Below, one piece after another: positions 26,387 to 56,090 of a stretch of DNA of 64,000 nucleotides; positions within the stretch are counted from its first letter, which is position 1, and every line of letters starts with the position of its first letter. A program made the translations under genes and the position numbers. The notes below the pieces were generated by a model. It did not search any database, was not told the DNA's origin, and was given only the letters and a program-made list of their open reading frames with translations. Origin of the DNA: Planctomycetota bacterium (GTDB lineage Bacteria; Planctomycetota; UBA1135; UBA2386); assembly GCA_016794035.1 (NCBI GenBank), contig JAEUHS010000058.1:14854-78853 (forward strand), written 5' to 3'.

Positions 26387-27796
26387 CTACGGCCACTCGT
26401 GGTGGAAGAACTCGCCGGCCGGCTTGTCGGTGCGCTCGAACGTGTGCGCGCCGAACAGGTCGCGCTGCGCCTGGGTCAGGTTCTGCGGCAGCTTGGCGCG
26501 GCGGTAGGAGTCGAAGTAGCTGAGGCTCGCGCCCATCGCCAGCGTCGGCACGCCGTGTTCCGCCGCCAATGCGACCACCTTGCGCCACGCGCCCTGATGT
26601 TCCTGCAGGAAGCCGCCCAGCTCCGGGTCGAGCAGCAGGTTCGCCAGGCGCTTCCGCTTGCCGAACGCGGCCTGGATGCGGCCGAGGAAGCGCGCGCGGA
26701 TGATGCAGCCGCCCTTCCAGATGCGGGCGATCTCGCCGAAGTCGAGGCCCCACCCTTTCTCGGCATCGGCGGTGGCCAGCAGGTCGAGGCCCTGCGCGTA
26801 CGAGCAGATCTTGCTGCAGTAGAGGGCGTCGCGCACCGCATCGACCAGCTCGGCCGGCGCCTTCGTCGCCCTCGGGCCGTGCAGCACCTTGCTGGCGGCG
26901 ACGCGCTGCTCCTTCTGCGAGCTGAGGCAGCGGGCGTCGACCGCCGCGGCCATGGTCGGCACCGCGACGCCGTAGCGCAGCGCCATCTCCGAGGTCCACT
27001 TGCCGGTGCCCTTCTGGCCGGCGCGGTCGACGATCACGTCGACCATCGGCTGCCGCGTCGCCGGGTCGGTGGCGCGCAGGATGCGCGCGGTGATCTCGAT
27101 CAGGAACGACTCGAGGAAGCCCTTGTTCCAGTTCGCGAACGTGTCGGCCATCTGCGGATACGACATGCCGAGCACGTTCTGCATCAGATCGAAGCACTCG
27201 GCGATCAGCTGCATGTCGCCGTACTCGATGCCGTTGTGGACCATCTTCGTGAAGTGGCCGGCGGCGCCGGTGCCGACGTGGGTCACGCAGGGGCCGTCCT
27301 CGACCTGGGCGGCGATCCTGGTCAGGATCGGCGCCAGCTCGTCGTAGGCGCTCCGTTCGCCGCCGGGCATCAGGCTCGGACCGTTGAGCGCGCCTTCCTC
27401 GCCGCCGGACACGCCCATGCCGACGAAGCGGAAGCCCTTCGCCTGCAGCTCGCGCGCGCGGCGCTCGGTGTCGTCGGGATGGCTGTTGCCGGTGTCGATG
27501 ATCAGGTCGCCGGGTTCGAGCACTGGCAGGAACTGCGCGATCGTGTCGTCGACCGGCTTCCCGGCCTTGACCAGCAGCAGCAGGCGGCGCGGGCGCTCGA
27601 GCGACGCGGCGACCTCCTGCGGCGTGCGCGCACCGAACATCGGCCAGCCCTTCCCGGCGCGCGCCAGCGTGGCCTCGGTCTTGTCGTGGGAACGGTTCCA
27701 CACGGTGACCGGGATGCCGTTGCGGGCGATGTTGAGGGCGAGGTTCTGGCCCATCACGGCCAGACCGACGACGCAGATCTTGGAGTTGGCTTGCAT
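26387..27796 (-). CDS. gnd: 6-phosphogluconate dehydrogenase, decarboxylating
   Basis: 469 aa starting MQANSKICVVGLAVMGQNLALN (Rossmann fold). Further motifs are GMGVSGGEEGALNGPSLMPGG, GHFTKMVHNGIEYGDMQLI and GQKGTGKWT. The other 813 codons of track ORF 26387..30235 are a shadow. Confidence 0.95.
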   Translation of the reverse strand: MQANSKICVVGLAVMGQNLALNIARNGIPVTVWNRSHDKTEATLARAGKGWPMFGARTPQEVAASLERPRRLLLLVKAGKPVDDTIAQFLPVLEPGDLIIDTGNSHPDDTERRARELQAKGFRFVGMGVSGGEEGALNGPSLMPGGERSAYDELAPILTRIAAQVEDGPCVTHVGTGAAGHFTKMVHNGIEYGDMQLIAECFDLMQNVLGMSYPQMADTFANWNKGFLESFLIEITARILRATDPATRQPMVDVIVDRAGQKGTGKWTSEMALRYGVAVPTMAAAVDARCLSSQKEQRVAASKVLHGPRATKAPAELVDAVRDALYCSKICSYAQGLDLLATADAEKGWGLDFGEIARIWKGGCIIRARFLGRIQAAFGKRKRLANLLLDPELGGFLQEHQGAWRKVVALAAEHGVPTLAMGASLSYFDSYRRAKLPQNLTQAQRDLFGAHTFERTDKPAGEFFHHEWP

Positions 27797-27879
27797 GCGT
27801 TCTCGTGGGCGACGCGCGCACTGTAGCGTCGACCTCGCATGCGCCCGACTGCTTTGTCGGGATGCCGCGGCCGCTGCGA

Positions 27880-29082
27880 TCAGCGGTTGCCGGTCACCGC
27901 GGCGCGCGCCGGATCGGGCAGCGCCTGCAGCCAGTCGGCCCAGCGGCGCGGATCGCCGCCCGGGTCCTGGTTGGTCAGCTGCTGCAGCGCCTTCTGGTAT
28001 GCGCGCACGATCACGACCTCCTCGTAGACACCGGCGACGGTGACGTCGAGCACGCTGCCGCTCTGCAGCACGTCGACCTTCGGGTCGGCGATGAACGCCG
28101 CCTGGGCGACCTCGACGTCGTAGTCGCGGATGTAGGCCTGCTGCTGGAGGAAGGCGACGTGCGCGCGCACGCCCGGGCTCGCGGCCGCCAGGTTGACGCC
28201 GGCGTTGGGGCCCGCGAGTACGAGCAGTTCGACCGCGTCGCGACTGCCGAGTCCGGCGAACGCCTCGGCGGTCCGTACGCGGACCTTGCTGTTGCTGTGC
28301 ATCAGGCCGGGCGCGAGGTAGCGCACCGCGGCGGCATCGTCGTGGCCGCGCGCGATGTCGATCGCGGCGCGGCGGACCTTGCTGCTGCCGTCCAGCACCG
28401 CGGTGCGCAGCACGCAGCGGTCGTTGCCGGCGAGCTCGCGCCGCTGCAGCGCCGCCAGCGCGGCGATGCGCTGGCGCTCGGCGCCGGTCCGGCGGGCTTC
28501 GTTGCGCAGGTCCTGGTCGGCGTTCGGTTCGCGCACCAGCAGCATCTCGATCGCCGCCGCGCGGCCGGGGCTGGTGTCGGCGCGCATGCGATCGAGCAGC
28601 TGGTGCACGCGGATCCTGGTCGGGGCGCTGCGCCACTTGCGGGCCAGCACCTCGGGCTCGAGGTCGGCGAGCAGGTCGTCGAGGCGGCGCTGCAGCGACG
28701 CCGCGCCCGCGTCGTTGGCGGGCGAGGCGGCCGCGAGCCCGGTCACGACCCGATCGAGGTGGCGCCACATCTCCGGCTCGAGCCCGGTCTCGCGCGCCAG
28801 CAGCGCCAGCTGCAGGTTGGCGAACGTGCTGGTGCCGACCTCTCGCGCCTTGGCCGCCAGATCCTGGCGCAGTTCGTTGTCGGTGCGCCGCGTCGTCACC
28901 CGGTCCTTCTGCACCACGACGACGCCGTCGCGGGTGGTGACCTCGAGTGTGTCGCCGCGTTCGACGACCTTGCCGACCAGGACCCTGCCGTCGTCGAGGC
29001 GCACTTCGTCGGCGAGCACGACCGGCAGCGGAGCGGCGACGGCGAACAGCAGGAACAGACAGGATCGGGATAGTGCCATCAT
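27880..29082 (-). CDS. Secreted HEAT-repeat protein
   Basis: The signal is MMALSRSCLFLLFAVAAPLPVVLA. HEAT/PBS-lyase-like repeats include SKVRRAAIDIARGHDDAAAVRYL and SKVRVRTAEAFAGLGSRDAVELL. Confidence 0.6.
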   Translation of the reverse strand: MMALSRSCLFLLFAVAAPLPVVLADEVRLDDGRVLVGKVVERGDTLEVTTRDGVVVVQKDRVTTRRTDNELRQDLAAKAREVGTSTFANLQLALLARETGLEPEMWRHLDRVVTGLAAASPANDAGAASLQRRLDDLLADLEPEVLARKWRSAPTRIRVHQLLDRMRADTSPGRAAAIEMLLVREPNADQDLRNEARRTGAERQRIAALAALQRRELAGNDRCVLRTAVLDGSSKVRRAAIDIARGHDDAAAVRYLAPGLMHSNSKVRVRTAEAFAGLGSRDAVELLVLAGPNAGVNLAAASPGVRAHVAFLQQQAYIRDYDVEVAQAAFIADPKVDVLQSGSVLDVTVAGVYEEVVIVRAYQKALQQLTNQDPGGDPRRWADWLQALPDPARAAVTGNR

Positions 29083-29166
29083 CGCGGGCTCGGGATCGGT
29101 TCGAGAGGGCGTTTCGCCGGGCTGTCGCTATGCTGCGCGGCACCGGCGCCGGGCGCGCGGCGAAGC

Positions 29167-30057
29167 ATGAAGCGTACCATTCTCGTAGTCGCGGTCCTCG
29201 GCGTCCTGGATCTGGCTCCGGTTGGGGCCCAGCAGCCCGCGGTCCCGCCCGGCGAGCCCGCACAAGCCGGTCCCATCGACGAGATTGTGGCGGCGATGCG
29301 CGCGGCGGAAGGGCGCGCGCGCAGCGTCGTGGTCGAGCTGTCGACGTCCGGCCACCTGCCCGGCGGGCTCGAACTGTCGACGCGCGGCGTGCTGCATGTC
29401 CTGCGCGGAGCACAGCCCGCGGTGCACACCGCGGTCGAGTTCTCGTTCGCCGACGGGCTCGGTGGCCGCGTCGAGTCGGCGCAGACCGCTGCCGGCATCG
29501 TGATCTACGAGGAGAACCCGGCGTTCGGCGAGCTCTACCTGCGGCTGGAGCCGCCGGTGGTCGCCGACCTCGAATGGGCGGGCGCGGTGCTGCAGCGGTC
29601 CGACCTGCCGGGCATGGCCGACAGCCGTGCCGCCGCGCCGCTGGGCAGCACCATGCTGGCCGAACTGCAGCGCCACTTCGACCTCGCCGCGACCGACCGC
29701 CGCGAACGCGGCGGCGAGGCCGGGCAGTGGTTCGCCGGCGCGCGCCGCGCCGGTCTCGAGGACCAGGACACCGAGCTGCCGCAGGCGGATCGCGTCGAGC
29801 TGTTCGTGCGCGATCGTGATCACGCGTTGCTCGAAGTCGCGCAGCTGCAGGGCGACAAGCCCCTGCAGCGCATCGTCGTCGAACGCCTCGACGTCGACAC
29901 CGACATCCCGGCCGCGACGTTCGAGGTCGACGGCCGCGGCCAGCGCCTGCGCGACGTGCAGCAGCATCTGCCGATGTGGGACCAGATCCAGCAGGTCCTG
30001 CGGCAGGCCGAAGCCAAGGCCCCCGAAGGGCAAGTCCGCCCCAGCAACCGCAAGTAG
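29167..30057 (+). CDS. Secreted hypothetical protein (possibly LolA-like fold)
   Basis: 296 aa with signal MKRTILVVAVLGVLDLAPVGAQQ. I recognise no confident family motif. The fold suggestion rests only on size and composition. Confidence 0.5.
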   Translation: MKRTILVVAVLGVLDLAPVGAQQPAVPPGEPAQAGPIDEIVAAMRAAEGRARSVVVELSTSGHLPGGLELSTRGVLHVLRGAQPAVHTAVEFSFADGLGGRVESAQTAAGIVIYEENPAFGELYLRLEPPVVADLEWAGAVLQRSDLPGMADSRAAAPLGSTMLAELQRHFDLAATDRRERGGEAGQWFAGARRAGLEDQDTELPQADRVELFVRDRDHALLEVAQLQGDKPLQRIVVERLDVDTDIPAATFEVDGRGQRLRDVQQHLPMWDQIQQVLRQAEAKAPEGQVRPSNRK

Positions 30058-30077
30058 CACGCGCCTGGTCGCGCACC

Positions 30078-30265
30078 TGCGGTTGCCGGCACCGCGCCCG
30101 GCCGCGACAGTCCGCGGCAGCCCGCACCGCGCCACGTCCGCGACCGCCCGCGGCAGCCCGCACCGCGCCACGTCCGCGACCGCCCGCGGTTGCCCGCACC
30201 GCGCTACGTCCGCGACCGCCCGCGGTTGCCCGCACCGCGCTACGGCCGCGACCACCCGCGGTTGC
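30078..30265. repeat. 36-bp tandem repeat, about 5.2 copies, in a convergent intergenic gap
   Basis: Unit CGCGG(C/T)(A/T)GCCCGCACCGCGC(C/T)ACG(T/G)CCGCGACC(G/A)CC. Copies at 30113-30148 and 30149-30184 are identical. Copy 30185-30220 differs from them at 3 positions, and 30221-30256 differs from that copy at 2. A degenerate copy lies at 30078-30112 and a 9-nt partial copy at 30257. Each unit contains the inverted arms CGCGG-N9-CCGCG. Confidence 0.9.
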
Positions 30266-30319: not shown

Positions 30320-31903
30320 CTACCCCTCTTCTTCGGCCGGCGGCGACTCGAGCAGTTCGAGCCCCTTGTAGCGCGACTTGGCGTACTCGATCTCGAAGTC
30401 GGAGTGGAACAGCGCGACGAAGCGGCCGGCCTCGTCCTTGACGACCATCGGCAGCACCTCGAGCACCTCGTCGGTGACGTGGTCGACCCAGCGCGCGCGG
30501 GTCCAGGCCTTGCGGTCGAGGCGCAGCTGCACGCCGTACTCGTTCTCGAGCCGCCACTGGAACACCTCGAGCTGCAGTTCGCCGATCGCGCCCAGCACGG
30601 GTTCGCGGGCGCCGAAGCGCGGCCAGAAGATCTGTACGACGCCCTCCTCGCCGAGCTGTTCGAGCCCCTTGCCGAAGCCCTTCGACATCGACGGCTCGCG
30701 CGGCGCCACCTGCGCGAAGATCTCGGGTGCGAAGCGCGGGAAGTTGCGCACCTCGAAGCTCGGGCCCGAACTCAGCACGTCGCCGACGCGGAACATGCCC
30801 GGGTTGATCAGGCCGATCACGTCGCCGGGCCAGGCGTCTTCGATCGACACGCGCTCCTGGGCGAAGAAACGGTGCGGGTGCGACAGCCGCACTTCGCGCG
30901 ACAGCCGCAGGTGTCTGGCCGACATGCCGCGCTCGAAGTGGCCCGAACAGACGCGCAGGAACGCGATGCGGTCGCGGTGCATCTTGTCCATGTTGGCCGC
31001 GACCTTGTAGACGAAGCCGGAGAAGAACGGCGCGTTGGGCGGCACCTCGCCGTCCAGCGTCGGCAGCGGACCCGGCGGCGGCGCGATCTCGAGGAAGCGC
31101 TGCAGGATGTTCTCGACGCCGAAGTTGACCAGCGCGCTGCAGAAGAACATCGGCGAGATGCGCTGCTGCAGGAACGCCGACATCTCGAACGGCTGCACGC
31201 AGGTCTCGACCATCGCCAGATCCTCGAGCAGCTGCGCGTGCGCCCTCTCGCCGAGCGCCTGCCGCAGCTGCGGATCCGACGGTCCGGTGGTCTGCACGCT
31301 GGCTCGGGTCGCGTTGTGCGCGGTGCGCTCGAACAACGACACCTGCTGGTCGCGCAGCGAGTAGACGCCGCGGAAGTCGTCGCCGGAGCCGATCGGCCAG
31401 GTCGCCGGCACGATGGTGATGCCGAGCACCTTCTCGACCTCGTCCATCAGGTCGAGCGGCGCGCGCGCCGGCCGGTCCATCTTGTTGACGACGGTGACGA
31501 TCGGAATGCCGCGGTCGCGGCAGACCTTGAACAGCTTGATCGTCTGCGGCTCGACGCCCTTGGCGCCGTCGATCAGCATCAGCGCCGCGTCGGCGGCGAC
31601 CAGGGTGCGGTAGGTGTCCTCGCTGAAGTCCTGGTGGCCCGGCGTGTCGAGCAGGTTGATGCAGTGGCCCTGGTATTCGAACTGCAGCGCCGAACTGGTG
31701 ATCGAGATGCCGCGCTTCTTCTCCAGCTCCATCCAGTCCGAGGTCGCGTGCGCGCCGCCGCGGCGGGCCTTCACCGAGCCGGCCTCGCGGATGGCGCCGC
31801 CGTACAGCAGCAGCTTCTCGGTCAGCGTCGTCTTGCCGGCGTCCGGGTGCGAGATGATCGCGAACGTGCGCCGGCGCTGGATCTCGGTGTCGATGTCGGC
31901 CAT
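30320..31903 (-). CDS. prfC: Peptide chain release factor 3
   Basis: 527 aa. RRTFAIISHPDAGKTTLTEKLLLYGGAI, DTPGHQDF and NKMDR are the GTPase G1/G3/G4 motifs in the RF3-typical arrangement. Confidence 0.95.
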   Translation of the reverse strand: MADIDTEIQRRRTFAIISHPDAGKTTLTEKLLLYGGAIREAGSVKARRGGAHATSDWMELEKKRGISITSSALQFEYQGHCINLLDTPGHQDFSEDTYRTLVAADAALMLIDGAKGVEPQTIKLFKVCRDRGIPIVTVVNKMDRPARAPLDLMDEVEKVLGITIVPATWPIGSGDDFRGVYSLRDQQVSLFERTAHNATRASVQTTGPSDPQLRQALGERAHAQLLEDLAMVETCVQPFEMSAFLQQRISPMFFCSALVNFGVENILQRFLEIAPPPGPLPTLDGEVPPNAPFFSGFVYKVAANMDKMHRDRIAFLRVCSGHFERGMSARHLRLSREVRLSHPHRFFAQERVSIEDAWPGDVIGLINPGMFRVGDVLSSGPSFEVRNFPRFAPEIFAQVAPREPSMSKGFGKGLEQLGEEGVVQIFWPRFGAREPVLGAIGELQLEVFQWRLENEYGVQLRLDRKAWTRARWVDHVTDEVLEVLPMVVKDEAGRFVALFHSDFEIEYAKSRYKGLELLESPPAEEEG

Positions 31904-31960: not shown

Positions 31961-32824
31961 CTAGCGCGGTGCGGCACCGCCCGTCGGCGGCAGCAGACGG
32001 GACGCCCAGTCGCGCTGTTGGGGCGGGCCGCTGGCGGCGAGTTCGGCGAGCCAGCGCGCGCGGTGCGGGTGGTCGGGATGGTGGCAGACGAGGTGGGCCA
32101 GCATCGTGTCCCGGTGGTGGCGCCGGGTCGCCGGCTCGGGAACCGGGGCGTCCGTGGGCGCGGCCGTGCCGGCAGCCGGCGCGGTTTCGATGGCGGCGAG
32201 GAAGCCCGCATCGGCCGGTGCCCGGTCCTTGCCGGCAACCATCACCGGGATCTCGGGCAGCGTCAGGCCCAACACCTTCGGCTCGCACAAGCTCAGCTTG
32301 AGCTGCACCGTGCCGGCCGCATCGACGACGATCGCCGGGTTCGGCAGGTCGCCGAACATGGCCCGGCTCTGGTCGCCGAGGTCGTCGATCCAGACGTCGA
32401 CGTCGAGTCCGTATTCGGCGATCGTGCGGCGCGCGAGTGCCACCCGTTCCGCGTAGGTCGTTGGCTGTGGCACGTCACAGAACGCCAGCTGCCGCGCGTG
32501 GGGTTCGCGCTGGTAGACGACGACGAAGCGAACGTCGGTGCGATCGCGATACTGCGCGAGGAGATCCCGCAGACCTGCGGCGTTACGACGGAACGGCGGT
32601 CAAGTGTAGCTGCCGCCGATCAGCACGATGGTCCGGCCCCGTTCGAGCAGGAGGCTGCGCGGACGGCCGTCGAGGTCCCACAGGCAGAGGTCCGGAGCCG
32701 GCGTGCCGACCGCGGGCGCGGCCTGGGCGAACACCGTGCCCGAGTACTGGTCGATCCACCGCTTCTCCATCTGGGCCGGCAGGGCGGCGGTCAGCAGCAC
32801 GGCGACGAGGCATGTGATGCGCAT
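31961..32824 (-). CDS. Deiodinase-like thioredoxin-fold protein with an in-frame TGA (candidate selenocysteine) at 32600..32602
   Basis: Track ORFs 32600..33061 and 31961..32473 are in the same frame. I checked the frame codon by codon: the only stop is the TGA, and 42 open codons follow before the second ORF's nominal GTG. The joined product is MRITCLVAVLLTAALPAQ...RTIVLIGGSYT-[TGA]-PPFRRNAAGLRDLLAQYRDRTDVRFVVVYQREPHARQ... This matches the deiodinase active-site motif G-S-x-T-U/C-P-P-F and the following Y.D..V.F..VY..E.H block. A GGAG lies 11 nt before the ATG at 32824. Confidence 0.65.
32567..32580 (-). promoter_or_regulatory. Candidate bacterial SECIS apical hairpin
   Basis: The mRNA after the UGA reads CCGCCGUUCCGUCGUAACG-CCGCAGGUCUGCGG. 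This is a 5-6 bp stem with a GGUC apex. The 10-nt core GCAGGUCUGC begins 21 nt after the UGA and is identical, as I recall it, to the apex of the E. coli fdhF SECIS (GGUUGCAGGUCUGCACC), in the same codon phase. Confidence 0.5.
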
Positions 32825-32843: not shown

Positions 32844-33938
32844 TCAGGGACGAGCAGCGGGAACGGGGCCGACGGCGGGGTCCGTGTTCTGCCGCAGCAC
32901 GCGGAAGCCGACGTCGTCGGCGCGCACCTCGGGGCGCAGGCGCATGCGCATCGAGTTGCGGACGAAGATGCCGTCGAGCACGAACGATCCACCACGCAGG
33001 GCACGATACCCGTCTTCGCCCTCGCCTGCCGGATGCCGGCCGCCGTAGGCCGCGCGCACAAACACGTCGCCGGTCCACTCGAAGGCGTTGCCGGTCATGT
33101 CCAGCAGCCCGAAGCCGTTCGCGGGAAACCTGCCGGTGGGCAGCAGGTTGCCGCTCTCCTGGTTGGCGGCCGCCGTGCGGTAGGTGTCGCCGTACGCGTA
33201 GACCCGGGAGCCGGGGCCGCGCGCGGCCTTCTCCCATTCGGTCTCGGTCGGCAGCCGATGCACCACGCCGGTGCTCTGCGTGCGCCAGCGGCAGTAGGCG
33301 GCGGCGCCCTCCCAGCTCACCGTGACGACCGGCAGCTCCGGCGCGTTCGTCGTGAACCCGCCGTGCGCCGCGTCCCGATGGACCCGGCACTTGTGACCCG
33401 CCAGGTCGAGCCAGGCGTCCGCCACGGCGTCCGGCCGCAGCGCGTTCAGGAAGGCCGCGAACTGGGCGTTGGTGGTCTCGCGCTCGGCGAGCCAGAAGCC
33501 CGGCAGCGCCGGCGTCGACACCGGCCGTTCGTCTTCCTGGCCGATGCCGAGGTCGTCGCCGCGCAGCGTGATGCCCGGCGGGATCCAGCACCAGCCGGGT
33601 TCCGGCGCCGGCGCCGGCCACATGGTCAGCGACAGCGTCGCCGGTGGCGTGAAGCCGAGTTCGGCGACCGGCAGCGGCAGCGGCAGCGACGGCGCGCCGT
33701 CGCCGATGGCCACCGCGTAGCGCCCGGGCAGGAGGTCGAGCGTGATCGTCGCGCCGTCCCCGAGCCCGGTCTCGGCGCCCCAGCCGTCGCGCACCGCGCG
33801 GCACAGACGCAGGTTCGCGCCGGTGCGGTTGTCGAGCACGACCCGGCGCGGTTCGGGCGCGCCAGATGCGCGCGTGGCCGTGGCGAGGCAGTCGCAGGCG
33901 CCGGCCGACAGAACGGCCGCGAGGACGGCGGCGTGCAT
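32844..33938 (-). CDS. Secreted/lipoprotein formylglycine-generating-enzyme (FGE-sulfatase/SUMF1) domain protein
   Basis: The start is MHAAVLAAVLSAGAC. The C-terminal domain carries ERETTNAQFAAFL, VTVSWEGAAAYCRW, RLPTETEWEKAARG, GLLDMTGNAFEWT and LRGGSF, the FGE-sulfatase signature blocks. Confidence 0.75.
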   Translation of the reverse strand: MHAAVLAAVLSAGACDCLATATRASGAPEPRRVVLDNRTGANLRLCRAVRDGWGAETGLGDGATITLDLLPGRYAVAIGDGAPSLPLPLPVAELGFTPPATLSLTMWPAPAPEPGWCWIPPGITLRGDDLGIGQEDERPVSTPALPGFWLAERETTNAQFAAFLNALRPDAVADAWLDLAGHKCRVHRDAAHGGFTTNAPELPVVTVSWEGAAAYCRWRTQSTGVVHRLPTETEWEKAARGPGSRVYAYGDTYRTAAANQESGNLLPTGRFPANGFGLLDMTGNAFEWTGDVFVRAAYGGRHPAGEGEDGYRALRGGSFVLDGIFVRNSMRMRLRPEVRADDVGFRVLRQNTDPAVGPVPAARP

Positions 33939-35746: not shown

Positions 35747-35857
35747 GGGCGCACCTTACCAACCCGCGAACGCGCCGTCACTGCGCGCTGGTTCGGCGGC
35801 GAGATCCGCGTCGGCTGCGGCGTGCTTCCCCAACTGGTGACCGCTAGGCTGCCGCCG

Positions 35858-36913
35858 ATGGAGTTTCCCGCCTGGGACCCGGTGCTGTTCGACATTCCGG
35901 GTCTGCCGATCGACATCCGCTGGTACGGCATGATGTACGTGGTCGGCTTCGTCGCCGGGCAGTGGATCCTGGTGCGGCTCGCGCGCGCCGGCTTCTTCCC
36001 CGTCAAACCCGAGGCCGCGCCCGACCTGATCTTCTACTGCGTGTTCGGGGTCATGCTCGGCGGCCGCACCGGCTACGCGCTGTTCTACCAGCACAGCCTG
36101 CTGAACCCGCTGGAGTTCGTGCAGGTCTGGAAGGGCGGGCTGGCGTTCCACGGCGGGCTCGCCGGCGTCGCGGTCGCGATCTGGCTGTTCTGCCGCAAGT
36201 ACCAGATCCGCTGGATGCGCGTCGCCGATGCCTGCGCCCTGGCGGTGACGCCCGGCATCCTCGCGGTGCGCTGCGCGAACTTCATCAACGGCGAACTGTT
36301 CGGGCGCGTGACCCAGAAGGGGGTCGGCTGGGCGATGCAGTTCCCGACCGACGATCGCGCGCTGTCGCTGCTCGGCATCGCCGACGACTGGACCATGCGC
36401 GACCGCGAACTGTGCATCCAGGTCGCCTACGGCAAGCGCACGTTCGACGACGTCAAGGGTCTGCTCAGCCAGGTCGACGGGCACGGCAAGGCGATCGACT
36501 GGAGCGCGGTCGTGCCGAAGCTCGACTGGCAGCACGTGCGCAGCCTCACCGACGTCGACGGCCACCCGCTGGTGCCGTATCGCCACCCGTCGCAGCTCTA
36601 CGAGGGACTCGGGGAGGGCCTGCTGCTGGGCCTCGTGATGCTCGCGCTCTACCTGCTGACGCGGCGACGACCGTGGCGACCGGGTCGCTACGGCGTGGTG
36701 TTCCTGCTCGGCTACGCGGTGGTGCGCTCGTCGCTCGAGTTCGTGCGGGAGCCCGATTCCTGGCTCGGCGTGGTGTGGCTCGGCATGACGATGGGACAGA
36801 TCCTCAGCGCCGGCCTCGTCGTCGGCGCGATGCTGATGCTGTTCTGGCCGCAGCGCGGCGCGGCGGCACCGTCCGGGGGCGGTCCTGGCCATCCGCCGCC
36901 GGCGACGGAATAA
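35858..36913 (+). CDS. lgt: Prolipoprotein diacylglyceryl transferase
   Basis: Motifs are IRWYGMMYVVGFVAG, GGRTGYALFY, WKGGLAFHGGLAGV, RCANFINGELFGR and HPSQLYEGLGEG. At 351 aa it is longer than typical Lgt proteins, owing to an insertion of about 70 aa after GELFGR. Confidence 0.9.
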   Translation: MEFPAWDPVLFDIPGLPIDIRWYGMMYVVGFVAGQWILVRLARAGFFPVKPEAAPDLIFYCVFGVMLGGRTGYALFYQHSLLNPLEFVQVWKGGLAFHGGLAGVAVAIWLFCRKYQIRWMRVADACALAVTPGILAVRCANFINGELFGRVTQKGVGWAMQFPTDDRALSLLGIADDWTMRDRELCIQVAYGKRTFDDVKGLLSQVDGHGKAIDWSAVVPKLDWQHVRSLTDVDGHPLVPYRHPSQLYEGLGEGLLLGLVMLALYLLTRRRPWRPGRYGVVFLLGYAVVRSSLEFVREPDSWLGVVWLGMTMGQILSAGLVVGAMLMLFWPQRGAAAPSGGGPGHPPPATE

Positions 36914-36973
36914 TGACGCGCCGCGGGCCGTCCTCCGCCACCTGCCGATCCGCGGCCCGCCTGCCAGCCTCAG

Positions 36974-39874
36974 ATGACCATGCCCCGCTTCCGAACCGCG
37001 CTGTCGTTGACGTTCCTGGTGGCCTTGACGGTCGGCTGCGACAACGTCGGGCGGGCGTTCGGGCCGAACACCCAGCCGGACCCCGGCGGTGGCACGGCGG
37101 GGGAGTCGACGATCGAAGTCGTGCCGGTCGGCGGCGACCTGCGCGACGGCCGGCCGAAGGTGAAGGCCGCGTTCCCCAACGGCAGCGGCTGGCCGACCCT
37201 GGTGCCGATCGTGATCGAGTTCAGCGAGAGCCTGAACCAGGCCTCGATCCTGCCGACCGCGCCGACCGCGACCGACGGTCGCATCGTCCTGCGCGTGCGC
37301 GGCAGCACCCAGGCGTTGCCGTGCCAGTACGACTTCCTCGCCAACGGTCGCGTGCTGGTGATGCGCCCCGTCACGGCCCTGTCGAACGCACAGGTCGCCA
37401 CCTACGAGGTGGTGCTGCTGCCCGACGGACGGGACGCCGACGGCGTGCGCTTCCTGGTCAACGGCAGCGAGCAGATCCTGACCGACTTCCAGGTCAATCA
37501 GGCCACCTCGTTCACCGACGGTCGCATCCTGACCACGTTCCCGCGCGACAACTCGAGCGACATCACCCGCGAGACCGACTATCTGGTCTTCTTCGATCGG
37601 CCGGCCAACGAGGCCTCGATCAACGCGACGAACATGCGCCTGCGACGGCGCGGCGGCGGTGACGTCGCGGTGTCGCGCACCCTGCCGCTGACCACGGTCG
37701 GCGTCAACGACTCGCGCGTCGTGCGGCTGCGGCCGCAGGACCGGCTGCTGGCGGCGACCACGCACGAGTTCGTCTGCGACGACACGGTGACGTTCGGCAC
37801 CGACGGCAAGCTCGACTTCCGCGGCCGCACGCCGTTCGCCGTGTTCGACACCGTCGGCGTCGCCGCGCCGTCGCTGGTCGAACTGGGCAACCCGGTCACC
37901 GGCTTCCCGAACAAGGTCAACCTGACGAACTTCGCCAACCCCGTGCTGCACGTGACCTCGGCGGTCGATGCCGCGGCCGGTGACCGCATCGTGGCGCGCA
38001 TCTACGGCGGCAAGGCGGACACGTCGAACACGGCCGACATGACGTTCGTCGAGCGCACGGCGGTCCTGCCGGCAGCGGGGGAGCAGACGGTGGCGATCGA
38101 GTTCCCCGGTCTGCTCGGCACTATGGCCCGGCCCAAGTTCGACGACGGCGAGCTGACGTTCGCGGTGCAGGCGCAGCGCGGCGGCGAGCACAGCGGCTTC
38201 GTCCACAACAGCGGCAGCGACGACGCGGCGTTCGACATCACGCTGCCGACGTTGAGCCGCGCCGGACCGCCGAGCGTCGGCACCAGCTTCGACGTCGTCA
38301 CCGACCAGGAATCGCTGGCGTTCTACGGTACGGCCAGCGAGGCGGTCGGCAAGGTGACGCTGACCGACGGCATGGTCTCGGCCGAGCTGTTCGCGTCGTC
38401 CGACGACGGCCGGTTCCTGGTGCGACCGGTGGCGCTCGGGCGCCTGACGGCGCCGCGCACGTATTCGCTGACCCTGCAGGACCGCGCCGGCAACTTCGCC
38501 CCGGGCGCCGTCTCGGGCCAGATCGTGCAGCGCGGCGTCCTGACCGGCACCGTCGCCGACGAACTGACGGTCGAGGTCTACGACCACCGCACGCTGCAGC
38601 CGATCCCCGGCGCGAAGGTGCTGGTCGAGCCGGCGCCGCCGACGGTGCCGTCGACCGGCCGTCAGGTCGGCACGACGGGCAGCAACGGCCGGTTCACGTT
38701 CACGGGCCTGACCGCGCCCAGTCACACGATCACCGTCGTGCAGCCGGGCTTCCATCTGCTGACGATCTACGACACGGCGGCGGCGTTCGCGTCGCTGCCG
38801 CTGCGGCCGCTCAGCAACGTCACCGCGACCCTGCGCGGCAACGTGCTGTTCACGCAGGCGCCGGGCACGACGGTGCTGGTCGGCAGCACGGCGTTCGACG
38901 ATGCGAACGAGTTCGCGGTGCGCACGGCCGACGCGTCGCCGACGACGATTCCCGCGACCAGCATCACGCCGAATCGCCCCGCGATCGTGACTGCGTTCGG
39001 CGGCGTCCTCGAGCCGACCATGCGCCCGGCGTTCACCCTGCAGGGCTTCCAGTCGCTCGGCAACGACGGCATGTCGCTGGCCCCGCCGCCGCTGCCGCCG
39101 GCCGCGGGTGCGGCGTCCGAACAGAGCCTGGTGCTGCTGCCGAGCACCGGGCAGATCGGGCTCCTGTTCCAGCCGGTGCCGCTGGACTTCAGTCTGGCGA
39201 CGGGCCTCGACACCGCCAATCTGGTCGGTGGCGGGCCGTTGGTGCGCGTCACGGCGTCGTTGCGGGGCTTCGCGGCACAGGCGCTGATGGGCGTCGGTTT
39301 CGCGGTCCTCACCACCGGCAGCACGTTCAACATCGACGGCAACTGGACGCTGCCCGGCTTCATCGCCTTCACGCCGTTCGACGCCAACGCACTGGCCTGG
39401 ATCGTCGCCGACGCGCGGGACGGCGCGGGGCGCATCAGCCGCACCCGGATCCGCTTCAACACCCTGACCGGCCTCGACGAGAACCGGGTGCCGCCGCAGG
39501 CGATCCCCGCCGTCACCGTGCCGACGGGGCCGTCTGTCGGCTCGCCGGCGGTCGAGTTCGCCGACGTGCTCGACCCGGCCGCGGTGCTCAGCACTCTGTG
39601 CACCGTCGACGTGGTCGCCGAGGACGCGGCCGGCCGGCGGTGGACGCTGCTGGTGGCCGACAGCGATGCCGCCGGCCTCACCAAGACGGTGCAGTTCCCC
39701 GATCTGACCGGTGCGGGCGTGACCGGGCTGCAGACCGGCACGTGGAACGTGCGACCCGAGGCCCGCACCTGGGTGTCGGTCGGGGCGACCGCCGACGAGT
39801 TCGTGCTGGCCGATCGCCGTCGCCTCGAGGTCGCCTACTCGCGCGGCCTCGCGGTCCCGTTCACGATCCAGTGA
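36974..39874 (+). CDS. Large surface lipoprotein with Ig-like/beta-sandwich repeats
   Basis: 966 aa. The signal plus lipobox is LTFLVALTVGC. SbsA/Big-like segments appear (KVKAAFPNGSGWPTLVPIVIEFSESLNQASI) and a CarboxypepD_reg-like segment (LTGTVADELTVEVYDHRTLQPIPGAKVLVEP...GRFTFTGL). Confidence 0.65.
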   Translation: MTMPRFRTALSLTFLVALTVGCDNVGRAFGPNTQPDPGGGTAGESTIEVVPVGGDLRDGRPKVKAAFPNGSGWPTLVPIVIEFSESLNQASILPTAPTATDGRIVLRVRGSTQALPCQYDFLANGRVLVMRPVTALSNAQVATYEVVLLPDGRDADGVRFLVNGSEQILTDFQVNQATSFTDGRILTTFPRDNSSDITRETDYLVFFDRPANEASINATNMRLRRRGGGDVAVSRTLPLTTVGVNDSRVVRLRPQDRLLAATTHEFVCDDTVTFGTDGKLDFRGRTPFAVFDTVGVAAPSLVELGNPVTGFPNKVNLTNFANPVLHVTSAVDAAAGDRIVARIYGGKADTSNTADMTFVERTAVLPAAGEQTVAIEFPGLLGTMARPKFDDGELTFAVQAQRGGEHSGFVHNSGSDDAAFDITLPTLSRAGPPSVGTSFDVVTDQESLAFYGTASEAVGKVTLTDGMVSAELFASSDDGRFLVRPVALGRLTAPRTYSLTLQDRAGNFAPGAVSGQIVQRGVLTGTVADELTVEVYDHRTLQPIPGAKVLVEPAPPTVPSTGRQVGTTGSNGRFTFTGLTAPSHTITVVQPGFHLLTIYDTAAAFASLPLRPLSNVTATLRGNVLFTQAPGTTVLVGSTAFDDANEFAVRTADASPTTIPATSITPNRPAIVTAFGGVLEPTMRPAFTLQGFQSLGNDGMSLAPPPLPPAAGAASEQSLVLLPSTGQIGLLFQPVPLDFSLATGLDTANLVGGGPLVRVTASLRGFAAQALMGVGFAVLTTGSTFNIDGNWTLPGFIAFTPFDANALAWIVADARDGAGRISRTRIRFNTLTGLDENRVPPQAIPAVTVPTGPSVGSPAVEFADVLDPAAVLSTLCTVDVVAEDAAGRRWTLLVADSDAAGLTKTVQFPDLTGAGVTGLQTGTWNVRPEARTWVSVGATADEFVLADRRRLEVAYSRGLAVPFTIQ

Positions 39875-40531
39875 ATGGCCGCTCCTGCTCGAGGCATCGC
39901 GCTGCTGTCGGGCGGGCTGGACTCCGGCGTCGCGGCGGCGACGTTCGCGCGGCAACCCGGCCGCGTGCTGGCGGCCTGTCTGTTCGTCGCCTACGGCCAG
40001 CGCGCGGCGCGGCCCGAGGCCGAGGCCGCCAGCCGGCTGGCGCGCCGGCTCGCGGCGCCGCTGCTGACGATCGAGCTGCCGTGGCTCGGCGACCTCGCGC
40101 GGTCCAGCGGCAGCCGGCTGATCCGCGGCACCGGCGATCTGCCGCACGGCACCGAGCGAGTCCCCGGTGATGCCGCCAGCGCGGCCGCGGTCTGGGTGCC
40201 GGCGCGCAACGTCGTGTTCGTCGCCATCGCGGCAGCGCACGCCGAGGCGATGGGGGCGCGATTCGTGGTGACCGGCTTCAACCGCGAGGAGGCGGCGACG
40301 TTCGCCGACAACTCGGCGGCGTTCGTCGCGGCCAGCGACACGATGCTGGCGCTCGGCACCCGCACCGGCGTGCAGGTCACGAGTCCGACGCTGGCCCTGG
40401 ACAAGGCGGAGATCGTCGCCTCGGCGCGCGCGCTCGGCTTCACCGCCGCGGACTTCTGGTCGTGCTACGAGGGTGGCGCCGCCCCCTGCGGCCGCTGCGA
40501 ATCGTGCCTGCGCAGCCGCTGGACGCGTTGA
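39875..40531 (+). CDS. queC: 7-cyano-7-deazaguanine synthase
   Basis: ALLSGGLDSGVAAA is the PP-loop (SGGxDS). VPARNVVF is present, and the C-terminal zinc-Cys cluster is WSCYEGGAAPCGRCESC. Confidence 0.85.
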   Translation: MAAPARGIALLSGGLDSGVAAATFARQPGRVLAACLFVAYGQRAARPEAEAASRLARRLAAPLLTIELPWLGDLARSSGSRLIRGTGDLPHGTERVPGDAASAAAVWVPARNVVFVAIAAAHAEAMGARFVVTGFNREEAATFADNSAAFVAASDTMLALGTRTGVQVTSPTLALDKAEIVASARALGFTAADFWSCYEGGAAPCGRCESCLRSRWTR

Positions 40532-40538
40532 TCGACGT

Positions 40539-41360
40539 ATGCTGCCGCGCCGCGGCATGGTCTCGATCTTCGGCATCGTCAACGTCACGCGCGACTCGTT
40601 CTCCGACGGCGGTCGCTTCCTCGAGCCCGCCGCGGCGCTCGCGCAGGCGGAGCGGCTGCTGACGGACGGCGCCGACGTGATCGACGTCGGTGCCGAGTCG
40701 ACGCACCCGGACGCCGAGGACGTCGACGAAGACGCGGAGATCCGGCGCCTGACCCCGGTCGTGCAGGGCCTGCTCGCGCGCGGGGCGAACGTCAGCGTCG
40801 ACACCTGCAAGCCGGCGGTGATGGCCGCGATGACGGCGCTCGGCGTGCACTGGCTCAACGACGTGCACGGCTTCCGCACGCCGGCGGCGCTCGCCACGGC
40901 CGCGGCCGCACCGCCGCACGTGCGTTTCGTCGTGATGCACTCGCGCAGCGCCGCCGCGCGCGCCGAACGCCGCGCGCACGGCGCCGGGACGCTGCTGGCG
41001 GAGCTGCACGCGTTCTTCGCCGAGCGCCTCGCCGCGTTCCGGGCCGCGGGCGTCGCGCCGGAACGGCTGGCGTTCGATCCCGGCATGGGCTTCTTCCTCG
41101 GCAGCGGTGCCCAGCCGAGCCTGACGGTGCTGCGGCACCTCGACGAACTCAGGCGCTTCGCGGTGCCGTTGCTGGTGTCCGTGTCGCGCAAGTCGTTCCT
41201 CGGTGAGGTGACGGGTCGGCCCGTCGCGGAGCGTGGACCCGGCACCCTGGCGGCCGAGCTGTGGGCGGCGCGGCACGGCGCCGACTTCGTGCGCACGCAC
41301 GACGTCGCGGCGCTGCGGGCCGGGATCGCGGTCGAACGAGCCATCGCGGCGGCGCCATGA
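40539..41360 (+). CDS. folP: Dihydropteroate synthase
   Basis: Motifs are IFGIVNVTRDSFSDGG, ADVIDVGAESTHP, SVDTCKP, DPGMGFF, LLVSVSRKSF and VRTHDV. Confidence 0.9.
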   Translation: MLPRRGMVSIFGIVNVTRDSFSDGGRFLEPAAALAQAERLLTDGADVIDVGAESTHPDAEDVDEDAEIRRLTPVVQGLLARGANVSVDTCKPAVMAAMTALGVHWLNDVHGFRTPAALATAAAAPPHVRFVVMHSRSAAARAERRAHGAGTLLAELHAFFAERLAAFRAAGVAPERLAFDPGMGFFLGSGAQPSLTVLRHLDELRRFAVPLLVSVSRKSFLGEVTGRPVAERGPGTLAAELWAARHGADFVRTHDVAALRAGIAVERAIAAAP

Positions 41361-42121
41361 TCCCGCTGCGCGACAGCATCCCCGCCAGCCGCACGCCGGT
41401 CGTCAACTACGCGATGATCGGTCTGTGCTCGCTGGTGTTCGCCGCCCAGCTCGCCGACCCGGACGGCGCGCTCGTCGAACGGCTCGGCATGGTGCCGGCG
41501 CGCGTGCTCGAACCCGGCGTCGACCACGTCGTGCGCGGTCTGGGCCGGCCGCACCTGCTGGTGCCGGCGCTGGTGCCGGAGTGGGCGACGCTGCTGACCT
41601 GCACGTTCCTGCACGGCGGCTGGCTGCACTTCATCGGCAACATGCTGTTCCTGTGGATCTTCGGCGACAACGTCGAGGATCGCTTCGGCCGGCTGCCCTA
41701 CCTGGTCTTCTACCTGGTCAGCGGCGCCGCGGCCTCGGCGTCGCACCTGCTCAGCGCGCCCGGCTCGACGGTGCCGACCATCGGCGCCAGCGGCGCGATC
41801 GCCGGCGTCATGGGCGCCTACATGCTGCTGTATCCGCGGTCGCGGGTGCAGATGCTGATCGTGTTCGGCTTCTTCGTCGACGTGATCGTGCTGCCGGCGC
41901 CGTTCTTCCTCGGCTACTGGTTCCTGCTGCAGCTGCTGCAGGGATCGCTGTCGGCCGGAGCCGACGGCGGTGGCGTTGCCTGGTGGGCGCACATCGGCGG
42001 CTTCGTGCTCGGTGCGGCGGTGGCGGCGACCCTGCGCATGCTCGAACGGCTGCGGCCCGAACCCCCGACCGTGGTGCTGTCGCGACAACGCTGGGGCGGC
42101 AACTTCCGGCGTCTGCGGTAG
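41357..42121 (+). CDS. Rhomboid-family intramembrane serine protease
   Basis: The ATGA overlaps the folP stop. Motifs are FLHGGWLHFIGNMLFLWIFG, the catalytic Ser in GASGAIAGVMG, and the His context AHIGGF. Confidence 0.85.
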   Translation: MIPLRDSIPASRTPVVNYAMIGLCSLVFAAQLADPDGALVERLGMVPARVLEPGVDHVVRGLGRPHLLVPALVPEWATLLTCTFLHGGWLHFIGNMLFLWIFGDNVEDRFGRLPYLVFYLVSGAAASASHLLSAPGSTVPTIGASGAIAGVMGAYMLLYPRSRVQMLIVFGFFVDVIVLPAPFFLGYWFLLQLLQGSLSAGADGGGVAWWAHIGGFVLGAAVAATLRMLERLRPEPPTVVLSRQRWGGNFRRLR

Positions 42122-42127
42122 CCGATC

Positions 42128-42179
42128 CGGCCGGGCGCCGGCACGCGCCCAGGGGTCCCGATTCGGGGCCGCCCGGCCG
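42128..42179 (+). terminator. Candidate hairpin after the rhomboid gene
   Basis: CGGCCGGGCG-N32-CGCCCGGCCG gives a 10-bp GC stem with a large loop, starting 7 nt after the stop. There is no U-tract. Confidence 0.2.
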
Positions 42180-42258
42180 CGACGCGATCTCAAGTCCGGG
42201 CCGGGGAAGGCCGAAAGTCATCCCGTCGTGGTGCCGGCAGCGGCCCCGCACGAGGTGC

Positions 42259-52225: not shown

Positions 52226-53026
52226 TCAGCCTTCCGCCCGGGCGAGCCGCACCATCTCGCGGAACACCACCATGCCGTCGCCGTCGAGCGGCAGCTGGCC
52301 GCGCTCGATCTGGGTGCGGCGCCAGTCGGGCATGTGCGTCGGCAGGTAGCTGCGATCGGGGTGCGGCATCACACCGAGCACGCGGCCGCTGCGATCGGTC
52401 AGGCCCGCCATGGCGAGCGGCGTGCCGTTCGGGTTCTGCGGGTAGCGTTCGGTCGGCTGACCCTGTGCGTCGACGTAGAGCGCCGCGGCGTAGCCCTCGT
52501 CGAGCAGCAGCCGCTGCAGCGCCGGATCGCGTGCGACCAGGCGGCCTTCGCCGTGCGCCGCCGGCCAGCGCAACGTCAAGCCGGCCGGCAGGAACAGGCA
52601 GCGCGACTTCGTCGTCTGCAGCGTGACCCAGCGACACTCGTAGTGGTTGCTGAGGTTGTGCGTCAGCGTCACTTCCTCCTCGAGCCTGCCCTGGGTGCAC
52701 GGCAGCAGGCCGAGCCGGACCAGCACCTGGAAGCCGTTGCAGATGCCGAGCACGAGCCCGCCGCGCTGGGTGAACTTCAGGATGCGTTCGCCGAGCGCGG
52801 CCTTGATCTCCTGCGCCAGCACGCGGCCCGAGCTGATGTCGTCGCCGTACGAGAAGCCGCCCGGTACGGCGAGGATCGCATACGCGTCGAGCCGTTCGGG
52901 CTGCGCCAGCAGCTGCTGGCTGTGCACGAACGAAGGTGCGCCGCCGGCACGCGCGAACGCGTGCAGCGTCTCGCGTTCGCAGTTGATGCCGGGCGCGCGC
53001 AGGATCAGGCACTTGGGCGCGCTCAT
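52226..53026 (-). CDS. purQ: Phosphoribosylformylglycinamidine synthase, glutamine amidotransferase subunit
   Basis: MSAPKCLILRAPGINCERE..., the nucleophile in GICNGFQVL, and MPHPDR. The ATGA overlaps the purL stop. Confidence 0.9.
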   Translation of the reverse strand: MSAPKCLILRAPGINCERETLHAFARAGGAPSFVHSQQLLAQPERLDAYAILAVPGGFSYGDDISSGRVLAQEIKAALGERILKFTQRGGLVLGICNGFQVLVRLGLLPCTQGRLEEEVTLTHNLSNHYECRWVTLQTTKSRCLFLPAGLTLRWPAAHGEGRLVARDPALQRLLLDEGYAAALYVDAQGQPTERYPQNPNGTPLAMAGLTDRSGRVLGVMPHPDRSYLPTHMPDWRRTQIERGQLPLDGDGMVVFREMVRLARAEG

Positions 53027-55917: not shown

Positions 55918-56090
55918 GGGCGGCACGATGCCGGTCGGTCATCGGTGGTGCAAGCACGCGGCGCCGCGGAATGCGGCTCGCCGGACATCTGCGCTTTCCG
56001 CTGCGCGGCCCGCATCTGACCACCACACCGGCGCGTGCGCGCGGGTAGACTCCTGGGCCGCCACACCTGTCCCGCCGCCCGATCCGCACC

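Follow-up and report, generated by a model that had tools for sequence, protein, structure and literature searches.

An in-frame UGA followed by a conserved GGUC hairpin indicates a probable bacterial-type SECIS element in a deiodinase-like selenoprotein gene of Planctomycetota

Bacterial deiodinase-like selenoproteins with selenocysteine insertion sequence (SECIS) elements have already been documented in the analysis of the Sargasso Sea (PMC1088965). Members of this family, known from the Sargasso Sea and GOS metagenomes, display homology to PF00837, carry selenocysteine (Sec) at the active site of a thioredoxin fold, have a bacterial-type SECIS 3' of the UGA and exist in Sec as well as in Cys forms (PMC1088965). 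In a recent review the bacterial deiodinase family is listed as UxxC (PMC13188914). In E. coli, the loop nucleotides G23 and U24 of the SECIS are reported to be conserved, and a bulged U (U17) on the 5' side of the upper stem is needed by SelB (PMC8659212). Structural literature on SelB describes hairpins of 6-8 bp in which a loop G, some 20 nt away from the UGA, is conserved, and a hinge in SelB whose flexibility accommodates different spacings (PMC4605307). It is also known that some Planctomycetes carry selA, selB, selC and selD together with several selenoproteins (PMC4807772). The present study concerns a stretch of 64,000 nucleotides (referred to as the window) of contig JAEUHS010000058.1 from a Planctomycetota bacterium, with a G+C content of 72%. 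A gene on its minus strand contains an in-frame UGA, and the hairpin CCGCA-GGUC-UGCGG is found with its loop 24 nt past this UGA. With a probability of about 0.9, this hairpin is the bacterial SECIS of a deiodinase-like selenoprotein gene, which shares with the Sargasso Sea family homology to PF00837 (here just below the Pfam cut-off), a thioredoxin-fold active site with a predicted Sec, a predicted bacterial-type SECIS 3' of the UGA and the existence of Sec as well as Cys forms.

The gene (Table 1) has GGAG 8 nt 5' of its ATG, and the N-terminus of its product is a signal-peptide-like segment. The protein around the TGA reads ...TIVLIGGSYT-U-PPFRRNAAGLRDLLAQYRDR..., and the corresponding mRNA is GGC AGC UAC ACU UGA CCG CCG UUC CGU CGU AAC GCC GCA GGU CUG CGG GAU. 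In alignments, the UGA coincides with the Cys of two homologues, P0045 and P0046. It also coincides with the position at which Sec is replaced by Cys in 4TR3, the structure of the mouse Dio3 catalytic domain, which is the best match in the PDB (E = 1.1e-5). In the alignment with Dio3, GSYT-U-PPF falls on GSCT-C-PPF and YQREPHA falls on YIEEAHP, which is the downstream E-x-H motif. The arrangement that characterises the deiodinase active site, Sec or Cys followed by PPF with an E-x-H further downstream, is thus present. The read-through product reaches 26.6 bits with Pfam T4_deiodinase (PF00837; E = 4.4e-6), the gathering cut-off being 27.0, and 77.4 bits with NCBIfam NF038285 deiodinase_rel (E = 1e-21), at partial coverage of the model and against a curated cut-off of 250. 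The C-terminal part of about 90 residues (31961-32230, minus strand) contains the conserved pattern HHRxxMLAHL...WLxELAxxGPxxQRAWA, and this extension has no match in Pfam or NCBIfam. In some homologues, GDSL-lipase-like (PF13472) or thioredoxin-like (PF13899/PF13098) domains are fused behind the extension.

Among 46 database homologues, 44 are gene calls that start just past the UGA position, and the remaining two (P0045 and P0046, both distant) are full-length proteins with Cys (GSYTCP...). TGA is the genuine stop codon of purL, TatD, NFACT and a gene for a protein resembling formylglycine-generating enzyme (FGE), all of which lie in the window; therefore UGA is not globally reassigned and the genetic code is standard. 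The window was also scanned for further selenoprotein genes, using in-frame TGAs with high G+C at third codon positions (GC3) on either side and GGUC-loop hairpins behind a TGA, and only the site described here was convincing. The immediate surroundings of the UGA show some peculiarities. The window and 31 of 45 distinct orthologues have ACT as the Thr codon directly 5' of it (32603-32605, minus strand). ACT is very rare in the genes of the window (3 of 145 Thr codons) and is yet favoured at this site, thus the U immediately before the UGA seems to be selected. The base 3' of the UGA is C in every case. UGA-C is the weakest termination context in E. coli.

The stem of the hairpin is continuous and has five base pairs (C-G, C-G, G-C, C-G, A-U), of which the A-U pair closes the GGUC loop. 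Its base begins 19 nt past the UGA, and the loop occupies nt 28-31 counted from the U of the UGA. In the initial annotation, which was made from the letters alone, a stem of 5-6 bp around a GGUC apex had been placed behind the UGA at a distance of about 25 nt. The sequence was confirmed with the shorter stem, and the distance of 24 nt falls within the 16-37 nt of the published bacterial SECIS model (PMC13188914). This model, which is the bSECISearch consensus of Zhang and Gladyshev (2005) taken as summarised in PMC13188914, further describes a loop of 3-9 nt with G in the first two loop positions (G[G/U]), a stem of 4-16 bp and, as a stability threshold, a hairpin free energy <= -7.5 kcal/mol. 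The present element is a stem-loop within the open reading frame (ORF), directly 3' of an in-frame UGA that is aligned with the Sec/Cys of homologues. Its loop is GGUC in the window, with CGGGUU and CGGGCU as variants in orthologues; its stem in the window is 5 bp long, as compared to 5-9 bp in orthologues; and its spacing of 24 nt recurs in 47 related loci, while one locus with a shifted hairpin (L054) has 20 nt. The sole departure of the window copy from the consensus is its minimal form, which sits at the threshold of -7.5 kcal/mol.

Comparison with the SECIS of E. coli fdhF (Rfam RF01988, SECIS_2; minimal 17-nt hairpin GGUUGCAGGUCUGCACC) revealed that the 10-nt apex GCAGGUCUGC is identical. 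The fdhF apex given in the initial annotation is correct, as 5,420 of 5,426 complete E. coli genomes have a 100% match in fdhF to a 43-nt sequence that includes GGTTGCAGGTCTGCACC. In both genes the apex is read in the same codon phase (GCA GGU CUG) and the UGA is followed by C. Both G23 and U24 of the E. coli loop are kept in the window, the U being the third position of a rare GGU codon. The fdhF loop covers nt 22-25 from the U of the UGA, hence the window loop lies 6 nt further, in agreement with the two additional codons noticed earlier, and the minimal hairpin of E. coli starts 11 nt after the UGA as compared to 19 nt in the window. The likeness ends at the apex, and the host gene families differ. 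It had been argued that an identity of 10 nt to a functional RNA tip at the right place is unlikely to be coincidental. This did not hold for the bare 10-mer, which has two matches in the window as against 0.36 expected and is not significant; a hairpin with a GGTC loop and at least 5 bp of stem turns up roughly every 14 kb of scanned strand. Chance does not account for a hairpin that lies behind a Sec-site UGA and is also conserved in orthologues, and to this extent the argument was borne out. The second exact copy of the 10-mer, GCAGGTCTGC at 54304-54313 (minus strand), lies within a purL-like ORF (53023-55926); it has neither an in-frame TGA nor an extended stem and is a chance occurrence.

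Related loci (n = 59) were obtained from scans of one genome per species and of JGI (Joint Genome Institute) metagenomes. Nearly all of the genome matches are Planctomycetota metagenome-assembled genomes (MAGs), and the loci that cover the Sec site are nearly all either such MAGs or metagenome contigs. The codon at the Sec site is TGA, and never Cys, in all the 55 loci that cover it, and PPFRR follows in these. The N-terminal part is 47-85% identical in these 55 loci, is in frame and abuts the TGA, which shows that coding conservation exists on both sides. In 47 related loci the same hairpin recurs at the same 24-nt spacing. When 45 distinct sequences are compared, the A-A-G-L-R that comes after PPFRRN is encoded almost always by GCC GCA GGT CTG CGG. 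Thus 38 of 41 Ala codons are GCA, 38 of 45 Gly codons are GGT and 42 of 44 Arg codons are CGG, whereas in the genes of the window GCA makes up only 5.7% of Ala codons and GGT only 8.9% of Gly codons. The codons of the neighbouring conserved residues P-P-F-R-R-N vary synonymously, and the first Arg, for example, is encoded by CGT (19), CGC (13), CGA (10) or CGG (3). The probability of the codon set, given A-A-G-L-R, is about 2e-4. An AT-rich orthologue (L034) retains the identical 15 nt. The preferred codons that are avoided are GCG, with which pairing would be kept via G-U wobble, and GGC, which would alter only the loop U. That both are avoided is consistent with a specific requirement for A-U as the closing pair and for U in the loop, where it corresponds to U24 of E. 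coli. The two Cys homologues differ here. P0046 has S-A-A-G-L-K at the same position with the codons GCG GCC GGG CTG AAG, P0045 has E-I-P-A-V-Q, and there is no hairpin in either. It had been considered that Cys-containing orthologues might have the same nucleotide sequence for purely coding reasons, and this is not what was found.

Changes in the stem support conservation at the RNA level. RNAalifold predicted the hairpin as the sole consensus structure. In a helix of eight pairs, 80.6% of the cells are paired as compared to 20-52% when the partners are slid; double changes occur at five pairs, compensatory changes occur in 24 cells, and all the covariation measures lie at or beyond the top of 500 shuffles. 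C-G is replaced by U-A at pair 29-36 in three sequences and at pair 27-38 in one, and further down the stem there are 7 double changes at pair 25-40 and 11 at pair 24-41. Individual loci illustrate how the stem is maintained. L009 has GCU GCA GGU CUG CAG, in which C-G becomes U-A at the price of an Arg-to-Gln substitution. L021, L023 and L024 have UCC GUC GGG UUA/CUA CGG AG, again with C-G to U-A and with the stem lengthened to CUCCGU/ACGGAG. The stem of L027 has 9 bp, and L026 has GCUGC-C-GCA-GGUC-UGC-GCAGC with a bulged C. In L054 (3001-3040) the usual register is lost and GCAACUC-GGUC-GGGUUGC is found, with a stem of 7-8 bp and the loop 4 nt nearer to the UGA; the GGUC loop has been independently re-created in this locus. 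The comparison of orthologues, which had been proposed as a check, therefore gave a hairpin kept at fixed spacing, retention of rare codons and compensatory changes in the stem, and this comparative evidence clearly supports the interpretation of the hairpin as a bacterial SECIS.

A number of observations weigh against this interpretation. The minimum free energy (MFE) fold of 32540-32602, the segment whose folding had been suggested as a check, does not contain the hairpin; the segment folds weaker than its shuffles (z = +1.39), and in this 63-nt context the probability of the hairpin in the window's own sequence is <0.01. An alternative hairpin specific to the window (Table 1) shares its 3' arm with the SECIS hairpin and is by prediction the more stable of the two (-16.6 kcal/mol). 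The stem in the window is a minimal version of 5 bp with -7.5 kcal/mol in context and -6.1 kcal/mol as an isolated 14-mer, which places it among the weakest, as the hairpins of the orthologues range from -7.4 to -17.3 kcal/mol. It also lacks the bulged U of E. coli, and among the orthologues only L026 is bulged, with a C. A covariance-model search was likewise unfavourable, since neither the window nor any of three orthologues is matched by an Rfam SECIS model, even with E as high as 10, while in the positive control SECIS_2 finds fdhF at 87.1 bits. A-A-G-L is found in one Cys homologue too, hence its conservation is partly at the protein level. A weaker point is that tRNA-Sec, selA and selB were not found within the 64-kb window or in the flanks of the related loci, which are a small part of each genome. 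A tblastn search with E. coli SelA and SelB gave the GTPase domain of release factor RF3 as the sole match, which is uninformative on the genome as a whole.

Because of its folding results, the sequence of the window by itself would not decide the question of a SECIS. The failed fold of a single sequence, which the initial annotation had named as a ground for refutation, is, however, not decisive, because the competitor rests on downstream sequence that is not conserved in orthologues and because most orthologues favour the hairpin, which is the local MFE fold in 44 of 45 and has a pairing probability >0.5 in 31 of 45 (75-nt context). The functional 17-nt minimal hairpin of fdhF has only -4.2 kcal/mol under the same parameters. 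The alternative hairpin could reduce the efficiency of Sec insertion in the source organism, or it could be irrelevant during translation. As the SECIS models of Rfam appear to be gene-family-specific, membership of SECIS_2 and SECIS_3 is excluded and a SECIS function is not. With regard to A-A-G-L, the initial annotation had not recognised A-G-L as part of a conserved motif of the family. This was only partly right. The residues are conserved in the subfamily and are present in one Cys homologue, thus they are not wholly free of constraint at the protein level. However, P0046 codes for A-A-G-L differently and without a hairpin. The peptide itself is therefore in part a feature of the protein, or a relic, but its nucleotide sequence is specific to the Sec forms.

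Other explanations have to be considered. The hairpin could boost read-through of the UGA without Sec, with a near-cognate tRNA for Trp or Cys decoding the codon in its leaky UGA-C context; alternatively, it could be a translational pause or regulatory element for the downstream part. The C that always follows the UGA and the rare ACU favoured before it would suit such a role, as would the fact that tRNA-Sec, selA and selB were not found in the window or in the flanks of the related loci. However, the UGA stands exactly at the catalytic Sec/Cys position of a deiodinase/thioredoxin fold, and the GGU contacted by SelB is kept at the cost of rare codons (PMC8659212), whereas a generic stimulator would need no invariant loop sequence. 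Together with a geometry that agrees with the bacterial SECIS model, and with the existence of Planctomycetes having full Sec machinery, this makes read-through without Sec quite unlikely. Even less can be said for the explanation that the nucleotide identity results from coding constraint on A-A-G-L-R plus chance, in which case a palindromic 10-mer would pair trivially and would have no function as RNA. It is true that a second copy of the 10-mer has arisen in the window by chance, that A-A-G-L is present in P0046 and that the core stem is mostly invariant and not covarying. But the third positions are frozen on rare codons while adjacent conserved residues vary synonymously, P0046 has the same residues with other codons and no hairpin, the changes that are present are coordinated such that pairing is preserved, and L054 rebuilds the GGUC hairpin in a different register. 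This explanation is largely refuted.

It could also be argued that the TGA is a real stop, in a pseudogene, between two separate genes or as an assembly error. Automatic annotation indeed calls the downstream part as a separate hypothetical protein. A stop of this kind is hardly credible when TGA occupies the same codon in 55 independent assemblies, when both halves are conserved in one frame and when the halves jointly form one deiodinase-like domain. Standard SelB-dependent recoding is thus most likely, because the element fits the consensus, because precedents exist (PMC1088965, PMC4807772) and because SelB can accommodate different spacings (PMC4605307). If the mechanism is analogous to that of E. 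coli and Moorella, SelB in complex with GTP and Sec-tRNA(Sec) would bind the apical loop by its C-terminal winged-helix domains, touching the G and the U of GGU. When the ribosome reaches the UGA, the tethered SelB would bring Sec-tRNA(Sec) to the A site in competition with release factor RF2. Selenium would in this way be incorporated and translation would go on, giving an exported protein of 287 residues with Sec in the T-U-P-P-F active site. The source genome would then be expected to carry selA, selB, selC and selD.

Table 1. Position of the selenoprotein gene, its predicted recoding signals and the adjacent genes in the window
Feature	Position	Strand	Remarks
Deiodinase-like thioredoxin-fold selenoprotein gene (predicted)	31961..32824	-	ATG 32824, TAG 31963-31961, 287 codons including Sec
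In-frame UGA, predicted Sec codon, motif GSYT-U-PPFRR	32600..32602	-	Homology to Sec/Cys position; residue 75 of the product
Predicted SECIS upper hairpin CCGCA-GGUC-UGCGG (CCGCAGGUCUGCGG)	32567..32580	-	5' arm 32580-32576, loop 32575-32572, 3' arm 32571-32567
10-nt core GCAGGUCUGC, identical to apex of E. coli fdhF SECIS	32569..32578	-	fdhF sequence checked in E. coli genomes
Window-specific alternative hairpin	32545..32579	-	Covers all SECIS-hairpin bases except the first stem base
Gene with FGE-sulfatase domain (PF03781), signal/lipoprotein-like N-terminus	32844..33938	-	Ends 19 nt before the selenoprotein ATG
prfC (release factor RF3)	30320..31903	-	57 nt past the selenoprotein stop codon

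The genes on either side of the selenoprotein gene were also compared between loci. In 48 related loci the FGE-like gene likewise sits immediately upstream of the selenoprotein gene, with 40-72% amino acid identity, and because of this adjacency the two genes are regarded as a conserved two-gene operon. In NCBIfam, the FGE-like protein shows only weak similarity to GldK, PvdO, EgtB and SenA. The linkage suggests that the FGE-like protein and the selenoprotein form a functional pair of exported proteins; a literature search for a link between FGE and deiodinase-like proteins found nothing. A broader proposal can be made tentatively. The A-GGUC-U apex, which has no bulged U, lies 6 nt further than in E. 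coli and is near-invariant in the sampled Planctomycetota MAGs and contigs, might represent a lineage-wide SECIS class in which SelB reads the E. coli loop in a different stem geometry, and the gene might code for an exported selenoprotein partner of a lipoprotein with the FGE-like fold in the conserved operon. We regard this proposal as possible, with the odds somewhat against it. If it is true, there would be an extracytoplasmic selenoenzyme system which is not yet characterised, and which is missing from annotation since gene calls break at the UGA.

On the other side, prfC is probably co-transcribed with the selenoprotein gene. It is found 0-3 kb downstream in 14 related loci with 83-97% amino acid identity, and its adjacency is probably synteny within one lineage. 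RF3 acts in termination, which competes with UGA recoding. One of the related loci, L010 (JBERSB010000042.1), belongs to a MAG labelled Luminiphilus (Gammaproteobacteria); it carries an operon of the planctomycete type, and its prfC is 87% identical to that of the window. This contig is probably mis-binned. Gene calling based on GC3 cannot tell sense from antisense frames at 72% GC, therefore only selected long ORFs of the window were annotated, by Pfam. Two very long open frames were observed on the minus strand, at 26387-30235 (1,282 codons) and at 35756-42193 (2,145 codons). Only the C-terminal third of the former matches a known family (6-phosphogluconate dehydrogenase), and the latter, for which Pfam gave no match, overlaps an ORF on the plus strand that has Big_5 and CarboxypepD_reg domains. 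Both frames are probably over-extended or spurious at 72% G+C.

The present analysis has consequences for annotation. Both in the window and in publicly available Planctomycetota MAGs, of which there are dozens, one selenoprotein of 287 residues would take the place of a shortened "hypothetical protein". The analysis also adds a well-supported SECIS, validated by comparison, from beyond the customary model organisms. In a phylum remote from E. coli, the GGU loop that E. coli SelB recognises persists despite the rare codons it requires, whereas the bulged U and the spacing do not. The conserved linkage with the FGE-like gene is a concrete starting point for the function of bacterial deiodinase-like selenoproteins.

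The subfamily in the window differs in several respects from the bacterial family described so far. It has U-P-P-F, as in the animal deiodinases, as against the UxxC listed for the bacterial family; it scores below the cut-off of NF038285; it has a signal-peptide-like N-terminus and a C-terminal extension of about 90 residues; it is linked to the FGE-like gene; and its public gene calls are shortened hypothetical proteins. Similarity to mouse Dio3 4TR3 is low, and bacteria would not be expected to use thyroid hormone as a substrate. In eukaryotes the SECIS is located in the 3' untranslated region and is structurally unrelated to the hairpin in the window. The type of SECIS element and the selenoprotein family are both known, and none of the results alters the understanding of Sec decoding. 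The element in the window is predicted to act like a bacterial SECIS and fits the general model, but it stands outside the fdhF-type family of Rfam.

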